Shown piece by piece: positions 965-59,418 of a stretch of 64,000 nucleotides of DNA. This DNA comes from Eledone cirrhosa (lineage: Eukaryota): positions 120,466,001 to 120,530,000 of the forward strand of contig OZ024740.1 in assembly GCA_964016885.1 (NCBI GenBank), given 5' to 3'. Position numbers and translations under genes: made by a program. The notes under the pieces are model-generated. The model saw only the letters and a list, made by a program, of their open reading frames with translations. It was not told the origin of the DNA and ran no database searches. The stretch's first letter is position 1, and every line of letters starts with the position of its first letter.

Positions 965-1477
965 TATAAGTTAAAACAATGAAATAAAAATTCAAGTCAT
1001 TAGAAATATACTTCACTGCTTTACGATCGTTTCTAGGTGATACTAATACATTGTACGCATATTTCGTTATCGATCTATGTAGGGTTAGTTACAAAATATC
1101 AAATAAGGAATATATTTACCTACATGTATATCATCAGCCGTTGTCAAAAGCAATCATTGCTTTTGAAACGGCTGATGATATACATGTAGGTAAATATATT
1201 CCTTATTTGATATTTTTTAACTAACCCTACATAGATCGATAACGAAATATGCGTACGATGTATTATTATCACCTAGAAACGATCGTAAAGCAGTGAAGTA
1301 TATTTCTAATGACTTGAATTTTTATTTCATTGTTTTAACTTATATCATGACTCTGTTTTCCTTTTGATGTTTTATTGTTTTCCGGGATTTATTTTAACCT
1401 ACAACATTTTCAACATATGGATTACATTGAGTTCTTCATGCAGACCTAGACCCCACAGCTAACCGTGGATATTTCTG
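965..1477 (+). mobile_element. Fold-back (palindromic) small non-coding element with decayed hammerhead; PLE pLTR/retrozyme-like
   Basis: Near-perfect inverted repeat 965-1154/1156-1345 centred on 1155, unique tail to ~1477, (TA)n-like tracts on both sides. Confidence 0.75.
1155..1295 (+). ncRNA. Decayed type I hammerhead ribozyme motif (mirror copy on - strand in left arm)
   Basis: Stem I CATTGCTT(1155-62)/AAGCAGTG(1288-95); core degenerate (TTGAAAC; TTGACAA in mirror arm vs CTGACGA); long stem II TGATGATA-TACAT/ATGTA-TATTATCA; GAAA 1276-79, palindromic CGATCG, UA. Confidence 0.55.
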
Positions 1478-1495
1478 TATATATATATATATACT

Positions 1496-2990
1496 ATCAT
1501 CATTTTTACATCTCTATTTCCATGCTTGCATGGGTTGGATGAGTTCTTTTCAGCACAGCATTTCCCCATTAGCAGCGTTCCATTGTCATCTCAGCGAAGT
1601 GAGATCAGCTCCTTCCCATTGGGATTTACCGATACTTCACCCAGCAATCATCAACCAAGCTCAGTCTTTCTCTCACTCCACACCCAATGAAGAATGGCTG
1701 CTACATTTCTCTCCACCCGAAGCATAAAGCCATCCTTTTGTACATATAGCAAAATCTTTTGTTCTCAACAGTGGGAGTAGTTCTCTTAAGTTCTTCCATC
1801 CTATCTTTAATCTAGCTATTATACTCTTTGAGCACCACCCTCTACTCCTAATAAGATCACCTAGGTAGCAGAAGCTGCCAATCAATTCTATGAATCCTTC
1901 ATGTGATTGGAAATTTTTCATATCACTGGTGCTCTTCCTCTTGACTACACTTGTGCATCTAGGGCATACAAAGAATTCCTTTTCTGTTATTCTGCCTGTT
2001 ATCCCACTACACCTCTGGTGTATTCAAGATTTGCATTGTGTACATTGTATAGAGTTTCTGCCTACTCCTTTTCTTCATGTCAGGCAGGGCCCCTTCCCTG
2101 ATAAGGTCAGGGTCCTGTCTTCATTCCTACTTGCCAACACTTTAGTTTTTTCTAAGTTTACTTTCAGCTCTTTTGGTTGAAAATTCTGTTTCCATTATCA
2201 GAACTTGTTTGCGAATTCTTTTATGGATTCAGCTATAAGAACCAAATCATCTACTGAGAGATGTTCTTTTAGGCAGCCAGTCTTTAACCCCTCTGTTATG
2301 TCCTGGAGAACTATAATGACTAGTAGTGAGCTGAGAACCAAACCCTGATGAACTCCTACCTGTACCACATGTTCCTCACTAAACTCACTTCATACTCACA
2401 CTTTGCTGACAGCACTGCTCTCACAACCATTCTTCTTAATTTCCTTAATGACTACCAGATAACAGATTAAGGTATTCTGTCAATGGTCTTTTCTAGATAA
2501 ATAAATGCTTAACATGGTGGTTTATTCTTGACTAAGACATACTCTTGTAGTTGTCTCACTAAGAAGAGGACATCTGTATTAATTTTCCCAACTGCATCTT
2601 GTCTAATTTGATTCTCTCCTTAATTAGCTGTGCTATTCTTTCCACCATTTTAATGGTTCATTAGATTTATTACTCTGTAGTTGCTCCTTTCAAGAGCATC
2701 ATCTTTTCCTTTGAAACCATTTACAATTTTACTGCTGTGCCAGTCATTGTGTATGACTCCGTCTTGTATTACCTAATTGACTATGCAGGTTTCTTCAAAT
2801 ATTTTGTAGATGCTTTTAGCGTCTCAGCAACTGTTCAGATGATGCGACAGGTTTACCATTCCTCATCTCCTTAATTGTTTCTTAGACTCTATAACTTTTG
2901 ATTTCAATGGATCTCCTTTTGTTGGGATAGGTTGGGGATAGTTTCTCCCCCACCCCCCATTCATTCACTCTATTCATCTGCTTTCATATT
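1496..2990 (-). mobile_element. Old degenerate RTE-clade LINE fragment
   Basis: Minus-strand peptide FCYLGDLI..GG..ARLKIGWKNLRELLPLL, homologous to the intact RTE copies; many stops and indels; (CAT)n tail remnant ~1497. Confidence 0.85.
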
Positions 2991-3916
2991 AACATTTCCA
3001 AGTCTCTTTCTTTTGAGCACCAATGGGGTTAAGCACATCTGTTTCATTTCAACAATTCTAAGACAAGAAATATATAATGCAAAAACGAATTTAGCAGTTT
3101 TTGTGACCTTTCGGAATGGTTAAAATGACTCATTCATGATGCAAATATATAGTTCTTAATAAACAAGAGAATAATGCATACATAAGTAGAGAGAGATAGA
3201 GAGAGAGAGAGAGAGAGAGAGAAAAAGAAAGAGACAAATGGTTCTTAAATAACAGGATATATTTAATTCAAAGATGATAATAAATGGTCATAATTACTAT
3301 ATTTTTAATACATTAATTTTTAATTCTAATTTTAAAATCATAATTTATTGTTAAAAGAAAATTTCTATAACATTAAGAAAATATAATCGTGACTAGTTGA
3401 ATTATATTTGTAATAATTTATGCTATCATCATCATCATGTTACGTATGCTTTTCCATGTTCACATCGAATAATATATAGAATAATATTTCAGCTGGTTTA
3501 ATTGTCTCTTCAAGAAAACTTATATTCATGAAAATATTACATCGTATTTTCTATATTTGACAGGTTTATTAATTACTGAGGAAATTTCTTTTCTTACTTT
3601 TGAAAATCATTAGGTAATATTTAATTCTAATTTCTTTAGCATGTAAAAGTAAAGAAGATTGTCAGACCAAGAAATGTTTTTATGTGTCTTTCCATTAATG
3701 ATATCTGCTGGTCACAACACCTGGCATAAGGAGCAACATGAAATAAAGTATTTTGCTCAAGAACAAAATACATCACCCGGTAGAAGAATCAAACCAATGG
3801 ACTTATAAGTCCTGCACCCTAACCACTAGATCACATGTACACACCTATTATATATATATACATATATATATAAATATATATATATATATATATATATATA
3901 TATAAGAGACTCAAAG

Positions 3917-4045
3917 ATATTGATGATGAGAACCGTGGTTTTAATTGAGTCTTCACCATAATTGATGGTTGGTGATCGATACTAATCATTGTAATCGATG
4001 TTGATTTCTCAATTCTTTTTGTTCCTCAGAAACAGCTCTGTCTAT
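3917..4045 (+). ncRNA. Probable decayed type I hammerhead in small element next to (TA)n
   Basis: ATA-TTGATGA(3920-26)-TGAGAAC...GTTCCTCA-GAAA(4029-32)-CAGCTCTG-TC-TAT; C3>U, only 3-bp stem I, ~90-nt loop II. Confidence 0.45.
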
Positions 4046-56900: not shown

Positions 56901-57330
56901 AAAATATTAGCATCTATTTAAAATGACAGTCTTAACAGGATGTGTTAACTTATTTGTCTGGAGATTAGGTTTGAGACTGGGATAAAATTTATCATTTAAT
57001 CAGAATATTGTTTTTGCTTTTTAGTAAATTCAAAATAATTGTAATTACAATAAGGAAGTTTTTGGTACATCTTGATAAAGGATAAAGCATGGTTATGCTT
57101 GAAAATAACCTACAGAATATTAATTATTTCCTAAGGTTTCTGATATGTGAATCGCCTGTCAAACCTACTCAGCTAAAGATTCCATTCAGCCATCATCTCT
57201 TGGATCAGTAGCTTTGGAACAGGTCACTCATCCTTAGACTGTGCTAATAGAACTTATTTTTTTCACCTACATACTATAAACCACGATATAATCCCAGACA
57301 ATTTCTCATATATAGTAATGACTTACTTAC

Positions 57331-57407
57331 CGGTACCTCAAACAATGCCTGACCGTATTTAGTCCGAGAACCTTAATATGCTTTTCTAATAATTGTGGAA
57401 TCCATAC
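57331..57407 (-). other. Candidate 77-nt coding exon (VWIPQLLEKHIKVLGLNTVRHCLRYR)
   Basis: Strong gtaagt donor, weak tag acceptor, one open frame. Confidence 0.3.
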
Positions 57408-59225
57408 CTAGATTTTACAGACAATTCTAACCACCTCAATTTCAATAAGACATTAAATAAAACAAAAATTATTTTAGAGAGAGATTGTATTTATATGTAA
57501 AAGAAAGAATAATTTTTGTATTAAATTCTATTAAAGGGCGTCTTATTTCAGAGAATCCTAGAATACTTTCATGGAATCCTCTTTGTGAAATGCTGATTGA
57601 AAATTGTATTTAAATATTCTAGTTCGTAGCTCATTACAGTATATTTACTAAAACCAGACAAATGCTAACCAAATATGATAATACCTTGCCATTTAACATT
57701 TCCAGAGTTAGAATTAATTAAACATCTCAATAACCAATTTATTTACAGCTTTAAAGTGTTACATAAACCTAATAACAGAAGTAATGAAATTGCAATTTCA
57801 CTATGACGTATTTGTGTACAAACTAGATGCAACATCATTGAATGGATAAGAGTTTTGTTTTACACTCATGAAGTACCAGGTTTGATTCCAACCTCACAGA
57901 CAATTGTCATTTATCATTGTCTTAGGTTGACCCAAGCATTATTAGGACAACATAATTGAGCTTAGACATTTGGAAGCTCTTTGAATGGAATACACTTATA
58001 TATCAAAGTGTCAGTATTGTCACACATTGCATCACACAGATTCTCCCTGAGATTTCTGTTAAGGATACATGCTTCTGTAGAATACTCAGCCATTTACACA
58101 ATTTAAGAAGTAAGCTTATCTGTTGGCTGACGAACATGAGCATACATTGTTGAAGAAATGTGGTCAATTTATCATTACTAAATAGATAACATAGTACAAG
58201 ATGAGATTCATTCAAATAGAAGCCAATGAAGGAGACTCTAGACAATAAGTTGATATACTAGAATTAGTAACCAAATTTCCCTTAACTCATGAGAACAACG
58301 ATATATAAATATGAGTGTTCATTTTTCTCTTTCTCTTGTTGCATATATTTATGAACAGATTTATACCACATCAGTTCAAAACATGAAATGCTGAATGTAT
58401 AATGAAGGTAGAGAGGAGAGAAAAAGAAACTTAGTTAAAGTGTCCTGGTTGTAATATTTTTTAATGGTTCAGATAACATAACACAATATTATAACAGTCA
58501 GAATAGTACATAAAAATATATAACAGAATATCTCAGTTAAATTTCAAATCTAGAATGAATAATCCTGAAGCAAAGCTATAGGTATGTATAATAAATGAAT
58601 CTATGTTGAAAAGAAGAAAATGTGTTGAAGATATTTATAAAGATATGTCAAAAAATAACTTTGGTTTTAGAAACATAATAAAAGCAGTCATGAACAAAAT
58701 CAATCAATAGTTCTGGAGGACAAAGTCGAAGTGTGAAATAACTGATCATTATTATCTTTCAAATGGTTAATGTTTTTATGCACGCTTATCTATAGGTCAC
58801 AGAGGTCTGATGATGTCTCTCTCTTGTTCGTCTTGACCATCACAATCATTTTTCTGTGTTAGTATCACCAATTCCATGCCAAGTAAACTCTTTAACACCT
58901 CTTTAAAATATATCATCTAATTTCTAACACATACAGATCTTACCCTCATAATTTCTCATGACATATCTTTCGTCCTTATTTGAAAAGCAATCAATATTCA
59001 TTGTATTGTTTCATTTCTAGATCATTTATTCTTTTATGTTTTTCAGTAATTTGGCTGTGTCTATGCTGGAGCATTGCTTTGAAGCATTTGTAGGTAATTA
59101 TATTGATTCCAGTATGTATGTTACAAGTCATTTTATTGATTTCTGTATGCTGAACAGCTAAGGTTTGTGGCATAAACAAACAACACACACACATATATAT
59201 ATATATATATATATATATATATATA

Positions 59226-59418
59226 ATGAAGGAAATGTGGTAAGGAAGCAGGTGGACCATAACGCACCAAAGTACTCAATACTTAGGGTAGTAGAGTGGG
59301 TAATAGGAACAAGTAAGACCCCGACGGCTGAGCTCAAGCCGTTTCGACGGCTAATTCAGTCCAGAATTAGCCGTCGAAACGGCTTGAGCTCAGCCGTTGG
59401 GGTCTTACTTGTTCCTAT
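59226..59418 (-). mobile_element. Fold-back element containing the 3' half of a hammerhead
   Basis: Inverted repeat 59303-59357/59364-59418 (1 mismatch) plus unique tail; GAAA CGGCT-TGAGCTC-AGCCG TC^GGGG; (TA)n flanks. Confidence 0.7.

Follow-up and report, generated by a model that had tools for sequence, protein, structure and literature searches.

Short hammerhead-bearing elements in the TA tracts of Eledone cirrhosa are probably 3' ends of Penelope-like elements

Introduction

A 64-kb stretch of the Eledone cirrhosa genome (OZ024740.1:120,466,001-120,530,000, assembly GCA_964016885.1; hereafter the window) holds about ten short elements in TA tracts with the shape of type I hammerhead ribozymes, along with an intact Penelope-like element (PLE) at 36.6-45.2 kb. 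What are these small elements, and does the neighbouring PLE mobilise them, as the initial annotation of this DNA had proposed? In Octopus bimaculoides, a (TA)n-targeting PLE family of the Hydra clade with a hammerhead is the one octopus family among 27 in the supplement of PMC8557442. Non-LTR retrozymes co-occur with PLEs and have been proposed to derive from them (Cervera and de la Pena 2020, PMC7229834; 10.64898/2026.07.22.740005). For anole Poseidon in vitro, two internal RT start sites flank the tail, both strands of AT-rich targets are nicked and extended, and the hammerhead is dispensable (Frangieh et al. 2024, PMC11167929). Like the octopus family and the PLE-derived retrozymes, PLE hammerheads, their opposite-strand pairs and the U3-A8 variant are already published; new here are the scale, a rule of end pairing, a 2-kb unit without an ORF, and a shared tail motif. 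We conclude, with a probability of about 0.85, that the small elements are PLE 3' ends inserted into (TA)n by twin priming: among nine families (A-I), A, B, C, D, and G would be clipped coding copies of the Hydra clade, and E, F, and I tandem units without an ORF that are likely copied in trans.

Results

The 11 hammerhead-like loci of the window belong to nine repeat families, each with between 121 and 3,710 candidates in the genome (Table 1). Family A accounts for three loci (8.9, 32.6, and 33.3 kb) and the other eight families for one each. (TA)n follows the 3' end(s) of all 11, and 5 of the loci are inverted repeats, which had gone unmentioned before. A strict motif scan of the window found 6 cores against 0 in 60 block-wise dinucleotide shuffles. 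A relaxed scan found 12 against a shuffle mean of 0.08 (maximum 1), three of the 12 belonging to the intact PLE and one, at 3576, being probably a chance match. With a second descriptor, 9 motifs were found against 0.10 in shuffles, 8 of them near (TA)5, and hammerheads lay near TA in 17/18 cases against a background of 31%. Complete motifs by the descriptors are at 4568(-), 6342(-), 9026(-)/9162(+), 16609(+), 32655(-), and 46345(-)/46409(+); judged by eye on the aligned sequence, that at 33397(-) is complete as well. The window copies of H (3.9 kb) and I (32.3 kb) are decayed, with the full motif in other family copies, and the D element at 59.3 kb has the 3' half alone on each arm, with full copies elsewhere in the genome. 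The fold is nevertheless present in copies of all nine families, between which blastn detected no similarity. The initial annotation was right that these are PLE-related hammerheads from many families with (TA)n as their target. Among the best 150 of 200 Rfam matches listed there was no hammerhead family.

Table 1. Features of the window (positions within the 64-kb stretch)
Feature	Position	Strand	Description
Family B	964..1477	both	two Hydra-PLE 3' ends in inverted arrangement; left one short, right one long (tail)
Family B hammerhead	1141-1155	-	U3-A8 core intact on left arm; long stem II, CGAUCG stem III
Family H	3905..4214	+	old (74-88%) type I hammerhead element, decayed; tail present
Family F	4223..4581	-	portion of ~534-nt tandem unit without ORF
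Family F hammerhead	4494-4575	-	full type I; stem III long
Family G	6278..6372	-	95-nt 3' end (short end) of Hydra PLE
Family G hammerhead	6306-6348	-	minimal; U.U closes stem II
Family A	8928..9350	both	inverted Hydra-PLE 3' ends, short left, long right; hammerheads 9026(-), 9162(+)
Family E	16177..16757	+	1.2 units of ~489-nt tandem unit without ORF
Family E hammerheads	full 16604-16687, 3' half 16200-16218	+	predicted cleavage sites spaced 469 nt
Family I	32239..32460	-	3' end of ~1.98-kb tandem unit without ORF
Family I hammerhead	32292-32351	-	decayed in window copy (GAAG)
Family A subfamily	32549..32682	-	lone short-end arm; hammerhead 32655
Family A	33300..33627	both	long short-end arm with hammerhead 33397(-); opposite arm barely exceeds tail
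Neptune/Nematis-type PLE insertion	36573..45192	both	in (TA)n; short end left, 60-nt tail right
PLE ORF	37073..40903	-	uninterrupted, 1,265 aa from ATG; RT, linker, C-terminal GIY-YIG
PLE pseudo-LTR hammerhead	44929..44973	+	minimal type I; minus-strand copies 36732-36776, 41004-41048
Family C	46243..46597	both	inverted Hydra-PLE 3' ends; hammerheads 46345(-), 46409(+); UAUAUA stem III
Family D	59226..59418	both	190-nt palindrome, two half-hammerhead arms (long left, short right), each cut within stem II

Small TA-tract elements with a hammerhead shape are real and highly abundant. Canonical motifs occur at ~53 per Mb in unselected stretches, from which ~1.6x10^5 are estimated genome-wide. The window, which had been called exceptional in density, has about twice the genome background (for the same families, 11 insertions in its 64 kb against 27 in 340 kb elsewhere) and is not unique in this respect. 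The pattern and the diversity of families, the latter likewise called exceptional, were already published in 2014 (PMC4209133).

The motifs adopt a type I fold with CUGANGA, GAAA, and UH, stems I-III, and ends in stem I. The CUGANGA core had been ascribed to all elements and holds for most families, but B and D have a U3-A8 core and fit the type I hammerhead through the published U3-A8 covariation. In family B, the UUGACAA core adjoins stem I in 22 of 25 copies (fold z -3.6) and the base of stem II is atypical; CUGAUGA at 1.0 kb was rejected as the core because it is base-paired inside stem II. CUGACGA was found in family H (L179, L182, and L187), and in family I CUGAUGA is retained in 15/15 copies and GAAA in 13/15. 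Of 22 unselected motif matches, from a scan that demanded just the outer 1-2 stem III pairs, 18 have a self-complementary stem III, and cleavage as dimers via the palindromic stem III is predicted. Among 12 A-like hammerheads, gathered in part by a scan that demands some pairs and hence partly circular as a sample, 11 of 23 pairs are changed on both sides, a score reached by 0/500 shuffles; the compensatory changes called for by the initial annotation are thus present in this set. Since the stems covary across subfamilies, the hammerheads were probably under selection in the parent RNAs. Monomer MFE folds gave a clean three-way junction only for D and the intact PLE, and fold z-scores were weak for C, D, G, and I.

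Families A, B, C, D, and G, followed upstream along the strand of the hammerhead, run into Hydra-type coding sequence. The link was seen at one locus each for A (L131, with RT and EN in one insertion between a short and a long end) and D (L216; full D copies have the U3-A8 core), at L038, L040, L041, L043, L054, L208, L211, and L212 for B, at 5 of 20 upstream loci for C, and at L159, L160, L167, and L245 for G. RT is followed by a C-terminal GIY-YIG in L131, L216, and L160, and for B and C the EN part alone was seen. Across the linked ORFs we found RWR, DKT, the CxCX5C linker (in the A, B, and D ORFs), and CxxC/CxH close to the end of the EN, all of them features of the Hydra clade (PMC8557442, section 11). 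RWR and DKT were read from a full-length relative located in L131, 47-55% identical to the RTs of A and D; the sequences recovered for A and D themselves stop short of the N-termini. None of the Hydra ORFs encountered was uninterrupted, the two best (L131 and L216) having a stop each. All five families have the (TA)n insertion and a 3' hammerhead, and 3' UTRs of 1.2-1.9 kb imply elements of 3.5-4.5 kb for several Hydra families. At least 10 clusters (<75% amino acid identity) of Hydra ORFs are present in ~1.3 Mb of loci. By these motifs, A, B, C, D, and G are assigned as 5'-truncated, often inverted 3' ends of coding Hydra-clade PLEs; that they are retrozymes without coding capacity is rejected, because they join PLE ORFs. 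The other reading offered at the outset, pLTR-only insertions of many PLE families, is right for these 7 of 11 loci.

That the elements are non-autonomous retrozymes, as also proposed, holds for three loci alone, those of E, F, and I, which are tandem units without an ORF and with one type I hammerhead per unit. The E unit is ~489 nt, with predicted cleavage sites 469-489 nt apart in 6/25 loci and a longest frame of 63 aa, and F has a period of 534 nt in L149. Both are inside the retrozyme unit range of ~150-1,000 nt and I (~1,980 nt) is outside it; its cores lie 1981, 1987, and 1748 nt apart in 3/15 loci, its longest frame is 121 aa, and it has no match to 120 Hydra homologues and local ORFs. 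The queries for E, F, and I were the unit sequences themselves, so that any coding parent with nothing but the ends in common might have escaped. E, F, and I appear to be retrozyme-like units without a protein, likely dependent in trans on a PLE enzyme for copying. For family H, no coding parent was found in 16 loci.

The neighbouring PLE is intact, as annotated. Its insertion consists of a full copy, a tandem 5'-truncated copy, and an inverted 5'-truncated copy, 100% identical. The ORF contains DKSG, YVDD, a CX4CxxC linker (CIDKKCITC), and YIG; Pfam RVT_1 and GIY-YIG matched partial copies only below the curated cut-offs, and the full 1,265-aa ORF had no Pfam match. A C-terminal GIY-YIG EN with a CX2-5CxxC linker, a DKG-like motif, a pseudo-LTR hammerhead, a tandem and inverted structure, and a microsatellite target are shared with Neptune/Nematis PLEs. 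All 140 scored matches of the family have 99-100% amino acid identity, many with full-length ORFs, and aligned identity to the Hydra ORFs is ~16%. Judged by these motifs and identities, the neighbour is a very young, Neptune/Nematis-type PLE of a different clade from the Hydra ORFs.

Each family has two fixed 3' ends, spaced 60-135 nt, downstream of the hammerhead. The two discrete ends, followed by microsatellite, were found in 86/92 matches of A, 33/37 of B, 32/44 of C, 113/118 of D, 40/49 of G, 23/27 of I, 34/69 of E, 34/53 of F, and 23/24 of the PLE. A tail motif, YGAGYRCW, is common to A, C, D, F, G, and I; E lacks it. In 126 of 130 two-ended insertions a short end is paired with a long one, the ends pointing outward. 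Among 84 directly joined pairs, the short arm extends further upstream in 29, with the tail on the other arm only, and in 14 directly joined pairs the long arm is the tail and nothing more; thus neither arm was copied from the other.

Discussion

The pairing of a short with a long end points to twin priming. Following published PLE biochemistry, the GIY-YIG endonuclease would nick both (TA)n strands, and the two fixed 3' ends would mark two positions within uncleaved RNA where RT can start, each nicked strand priming its own cDNA from one of them. RT would often halt before completion, at stem II of the hammerhead in the case of family D, and the two cDNAs would be joined via 0-5 nt microhomology. 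The outcome would be inverted repeats of 100-600 nt with one, two, or only half hammerheads. With early stops and cDNA joining, the hammerheads would be pseudo-LTR cargo, and the majority of copies in the genome were likely inactive from the moment of insertion.

That so short a motif simply turned up by coincidence in AT-rich DNA has a negligible probability, given the shuffle controls, the TA proximity, the covariation, and the conserved cores in repeat families, even though about 1 in 10 relaxed window matches look spurious (3576 and 54773) and a single satellite accounts for 25 false U3-A8 matches. It is also very unlikely that every small element is a non-autonomous retrozyme in its own right, with the neighbouring PLE family as the driver. 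This PLE is young and rich in full-length ORFs, targets (TA)n, and obeys the same short/long end rule, but the sequence in common is trivial (a run of 17 nt in G and an AT-rich one of 52 nt in H), and it has no YGAGYRCW tail motif. Moreover, five families have Hydra ORFs of their own, and the small families are mostly older (74-99%). For family E alone, the neighbour may be the mobilising element; for the rest, the target is probably all that is shared.

The inverted repeats might instead arise by fold-back of one cDNA, or be MITE-like palindromes transposing as units. Arms of about equal reach in 47 of the 84 joined pairs and the clustering of D palindromes at ~190 nt would agree with this, but asymmetry is seen in 37/84, 29 of which carry on each arm sequence that the other lacks. 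The D palindromes have 14 different centres in 14 palindromes, in both orientations (taken from loci outside the D search, two being artefacts of one locus), and the arms correspond to PLE 3' ends rather than to the inverted repeats of a transposase. A MITE proper, with fixed terminal inverted repeats and a clonal interior, is rejected because of the varying centres and asymmetric arms, and either origin is quite improbable. A stronger challenge, with somewhat less than even odds, concerns only E, F, and I: rather than circular-RNA retrozymes, they may be internally deleted or captured sequences whose ordinary partial tandems come from linear read-through RNA, the hammerhead being a passenger. 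All copies run beyond the predicted cleavage site, meaning that the template was uncleaved or circular; hammerhead mutants insert in vitro all the same (PMC11167929), and 8 of 9 frog retrozyme dimers failed to cleave (bioRxiv 10.64898/2026.07.22.740005). The E circle fold is only modest (z -2.1), and one high-copy Hydra family has a U4A core in 17/17 matches. On the other hand, cores and stems are kept and covary, the E and F unit lengths are close to the published retrozyme range, and permuted tandem copies suit a circular template.

The reading as twin-primed PLE 3' ends agrees with much that is known of Hydra-clade PLEs (Craig et al. 2021, PMC8557442, including Hydra-1_Obim), namely the C-terminal GIY-YIG, RW(K/R), DKT, and CxCX5C, insertion into (TA)n, copies that are 5'-truncated or inverted, a tail at one end, and a 3'-proximal hammerhead whose stem II is often closed by U.U. 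Those are generally <3 kb, with tails of 30-40 nt and listed hammerheads that are all C3-G8; several families here would reach beyond 3 kb through their 3' UTRs, and the elements have 60-135-nt tails and include U3-A8 and U4A cores; the Hydra clusters here also outnumber the single octopus family of that supplement. Cervera and de la Pena 2014 (PMC4209133) likewise describe motifs that mostly occur singly and are attributed to truncated PLEs, together with opposite-strand pairs 100-700 bp apart, the U3-A8 variant, many unrelated families per genome, and a palindromic helix III. Their counts are in the thousands (~2,000 and 1,300 motifs for Schistosoma and 9,000 for Xenopus, with another descriptor), against the ~1.6x10^5 estimated here, and the short/long pairing was not found in the parts consulted. 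Metazoan non-LTR retrozymes (PMC7229834; Li et al. 2026, 10.64898/2026.07.22.740005) are, like E, F, and I, tandem units without an ORF and with one type I hammerhead each. However, they form arrays, whereas E, F, and I occur as scattered copies of 1-2 units, in (TA)n and with ends of the PLE type. The units reported for retrozymes are 150-450 nt and 51-972 bp (the latter from a search with a period <=1,000) against ~2 kb for I. For Poseidon in vitro, start-site use is alike on both strands (PMC11167929), in contrast to the near-strict pairing of genomic copies.

A bolder synthesis, which we regard as doubtful, is that this genome has among the densest ribozyme loads described (~50-65 per Mb, order 10^5). 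This load would come from a Hydra PLE radiation that spawned circular-RNA parasites, including a 2-kb retrozyme without an ORF, well over the known size range, recruited via the shared tail signal; the end pairing would then reveal asymmetric two-site twin priming. The material suits two open questions in the literature, the origin of the PLE inverted and tail structures and the purpose of PLE hammerheads. With many young families in one genome, the pairing can be counted in vivo, which extends the finding of two start sites in vitro, and the natural U3-A8 and U4A cores and half-ribozyme palindromes are controls for the role of cleavage in spread. The tens of thousands of short palindromes here are prone to mis-annotation as MITEs or unknown repeats. 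The inverted copies, if transcribed, would give long hairpins, possible substrates of RNA editing or small-RNA pathways.

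Results

The small hammerhead elements of the window, nine families (A to I) at 11 (TA)n loci, are real and well explained. A strict type I hammerhead descriptor found six cores in the window and none in 60 block shuffles, a relaxed one found 12 against 0.08 in block shuffles, and a second descriptor that tolerates a basal U.U in stem II found nine against 0.10 in shuffled sequence. The best 150 of 200 Rfam matches at E<=5 comprised miRNA matches driven by microsatellites, a single tRNA-like match, and nothing else, and a whole-window repeat finder was dominated by the TA tract at 13.4-15.7 kb and informative for the PLE (Penelope-like element) arms only. 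Genome searches queried with each locus gave, at first look, 837 (A), 1,358 (B), 2,205 (C), 378 (D), 3,047 (E), 3,710 (F), 2,045 (G), 121 (H), and 2,032 (I) candidates; scoring was limited to 40 candidates in each search, and the totals do not represent copy numbers. Copies found by similarity retained the core in 30/30 (A) and 15/15 (I) cases and, among parsed copies, in 20/21 (C), 18/19 (G), 16/18 (F), and 11/12 (E), with 4/25, 1/20, 2/20, and 13/25 copies, respectively, unparsed for the core. The cores of family H were read by eye.

Two families depart from the canonical core. Family B has UUGACAA in 22/25 copies, and family D has A8 in 9/9 full-length arms and U3 in six of those nine. Covariation of U3 and A8 is described in the available text on Schistosoma PLEs (PMC4209133) and in that on other natural hammerheads (PMC3088659). 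A U3-A8 scan of unselected stretches gave 29 matches, 25 of them from one satellite stretch (L225; L numbers denote fetched genomic loci); dropping it left four against a shuffle mean of 1.5, so the evidence for U3-A8 comes from families B and D rather than from the scan count. Among alternative cores in 1.08 Mb, G3-C8 had no matches and A3-U8 three scattered ones. In 12 A-like hammerheads, two-sided changes occurred at 11 of 23 pairs, more than in 500/500 shuffles and all slid controls, although part of this set was gathered by a scan that itself requires some of the pairs. Stem III was self-complementary in 18 of 22 unselected matches. The CUGAUGA core of the initial annotation at 1.0 kb was rejected because the sequence pairs in stem II and no stem I partner follows downstream.

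The assembly measures 3.0 Gb; the window, on contig 1, has a high A+T content and contains many fragments of RTE-type LINEs and many TA microsatellites. In an unselected sample of 34 10-kb stretches (340 kb) at round coordinates on large contigs, we found 18 canonical-core motifs against 0.38 in shuffled sequence, and 17 of them lay near (TA)5 (background 31%). This corresponds to 53 motifs per Mb, or ~1.6x10^5 genome-wide (Poisson 95% 0.9-2.5x10^5, clustering ignored). The density that looked exceptional earlier is not unique to the window, which, with eight motifs in 64 kb, is ~2.4-fold above the sample (P=0.02 before allowing for the choice of window). The available texts of PMC7229834 and PMC4209133 give >6,000 for coral, ~5,000 for mussel, 9,000 for Xenopus, and 120,000 for axolotl, whose genome is far larger; the load is high here, but these counts come from other descriptors and are not directly comparable.

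Walking upstream revealed coding parents for five families. For family A, a single insertion at L131 comprises an inverted 3' end, RT and GIY-YIG frames, a ~1.9-kb 3' region common to L132 and L134, the hammerhead, and the tail (the stretch between the two 3' ends described below). Endonuclease sequence lies 1.2-1.5 kb upstream of B in several loci and 150-400 nt upstream of G; EN was found in 5/20 upstream loci of C, and RT and EN in L216 for D. Across these proteins, RWR, DKT, CxCX5C, CxxC, and CxH features were seen, which in the available text of PMC8557442 define the Hydra clade; its supplement also includes Hydra-1_Obim, an element that prefers (TA)n and has a hammerhead, and shows that a stem II closed by U.U is frequent among Hydra hammerheads. 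The 22 Hydra pieces from fetched loci fell into 10 clusters at 75% identity; these ORF copies were met incidentally, none of them uninterrupted. One high-copy Hydra family has an ORF that is almost complete (490 aa, stop, 187 aa) and the core CAGAAGA (U4A) in 17/17 pattern matches, in which stems I-III look intact by eye; to judge from sequence, this could be a variant that is unusual but active, or the ribozyme may be dead and carried along by a successful family.

In families E, F, and I, sequence continues from the tail back into the unit's own 5' part. Predicted cleavage sites of E are 469-489 nt apart in 6/25 loci, F has a 534-nt period in L149 and further run-through copies, and I has core spacings of 1981, 1987, and 1748 nt in 3/15 loci. 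Reading frames do not exceed 63 aa in E and 121 aa in I, and the only protein match to the three units was to E, at E=0.019. Family H is old, and no coding parent was found for it in 16 loci.

In all eight small families tested, and likewise in the PLE, copies terminate at either of two discrete 3' ends, short and long, which lie 60-135 nt apart and are mostly followed by microsatellite. Among 130 distinct two-ended insertions, 126 combine a short with a long end, two are long-long, and two short-short. In 84 directly joined pairs, the arms reach similarly far in 47, the short-end arm is longer in 29, and the long-end arm in eight; in 14 the long-end arm consists of tail only. A, C, D, F, G, and I carry the motif YGAGYN(C/T)W at 45-82 nt upstream of their long end, and the tested 5' stretch of another Hydra ORF has it at 31 and 91 nt from its end (background 0.027 per 50 nt). 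Tested copies of B (a near match), E, and the intact PLE lack it. Because it was defined after looking, the motif is a lead, one that would tie F and I, but not E, to Hydra.

Features of the window and of other genomic loci (positions in the window unless a locus is named)
Feature	Position	Strand	Remarks
Intact Neptune/Nematis-type PLE	36573-45192		full copy with truncated copies in tandem and in inverted orientation; identity 100%
Insert in its ORF	39770-40100		long, Asn/Thr-rich, low complexity
Stretch common to its pseudo-LTR and G	44985-45005; 6280-6300		17 nt, just 3' of hammerhead
Palindromic half-hammerhead family	59446-59550		directly after D element; absent from initial annotation; 21 matches in fetched loci; TGAGTA motif in tail
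Decayed hammerhead family	63920-64000	minus	window end; relatives with CUGAUGA and GAAA, minus strand (20 matches)
Short decayed fragment	9830-9880	minus	like D-related subfamily; adjoins RTE 3' end
tRNA-headed SINE-like repeat	9496-9553; 32683-32790		Rfam tRNA 31 bits; often joined to RTE 3' ends, inserted beside TA-targeted elements
Broken RTE-type LINE copies	5409-6227; 10991-13237; 17957-20904; 25792-28174; 34517-35947		PHD finger after RT; (GAT)n at end
Imperfect (TA)n/(TACA)n tract	13373-15729		2.4 kb; large target, yet no inserted small element
High-copy Hydra family	L131:55-3940		also L134, L216, L141, L242
Further U3-A8-core families	L217:2173 and 3186; L019; L175		one met 6 times in fetched loci
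AT-rich tandem satellite (L225)	G000:C7:30000001-30010000		fills 10 kb; mimics U3-A8 descriptor 25 times

Discussion

Our results indicate that the elements are 3' fragments of Hydra PLEs (A, B, C, D, and G) together with probably PLE-dependent ORF-less units (E, F, and I), and that their hammerheads are putative ribozymes. The earlier term non-autonomous retrozymes suits E, F, and I, which in anatomy fit the non-LTR retrozymes described in the available text of PMC7229834, but not the five families that join PLE coding sequence. Such ORF-less units have been argued to derive from PLE pseudo-LTRs (bioRxiv 10.64898/2026.07.22.740005, available part).

The intact PLE had been proposed to mobilise the small elements, and its family is very young: all 140 scored matches are 99-100% identical, many with ~1,278-aa frames. 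Neither tblastn nor blastn linked it to them as a parent. It aligns to a Hydra ORF at 16%, and its sequence overlap with the small families is confined to the 17-nt match to G, which may be fortuitous or reflect a signal that both use, and a 52-nt, AT-rich match to H. The small elements probably lie beside it because both target (TA)n. The closest named homologue of its protein is from Octopus vulgaris (69% identity). At least 140 near-identical EN copies, including many inverted pairs and tandem full-length units, were seen, and the family looks currently active.

Where the short-end arm reaches further and the tail is on the other arm only, neither arm is a copy of the other, which argues for two separately primed cDNAs. 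Every copy continues beyond the cleavage site, and the RNA that was copied was therefore uncleaved or circular. An anole PLE behaves similarly in vitro: RT starts at two internal sites on either side of the tail, both nicked strands are extended, and the hammerhead is dispensable (PMC11167929, available text); the near-strict short-long pairing in E. cirrhosa goes beyond the result given in that text. In family D, the two arms usually end in stem II, within about 10 nt, which suggests that RT stalls at RNA structure and the cDNAs then join by microhomology. Single-cDNA fold-back and a self-propagating unit were rejected as explanations of the palindromic D copies, whose centres differ, and 37 of the 84 joined pairs are asymmetric; an earlier tally of equal-length centres (33/62) was inflated by a palindromic query.

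Family diversity, taken at first as possibly undescribed, was reported in 2014, as were the U3-A8 core and the motifs that truncated PLEs leave singly or on opposite strands (PMC4209133, available text), and the families may already be catalogued in Repbase or Dfam. Craig et al. 2021 was the sole relevant paper on octopus hammerheads or PLEs among those listed by a search that covered subscription papers thinly. The present analysis adds the scale, a quantitative rule for how ends pair, an ORF-less unit of 2 kb, a motif that is a candidate for action in cis, and the U4A family.
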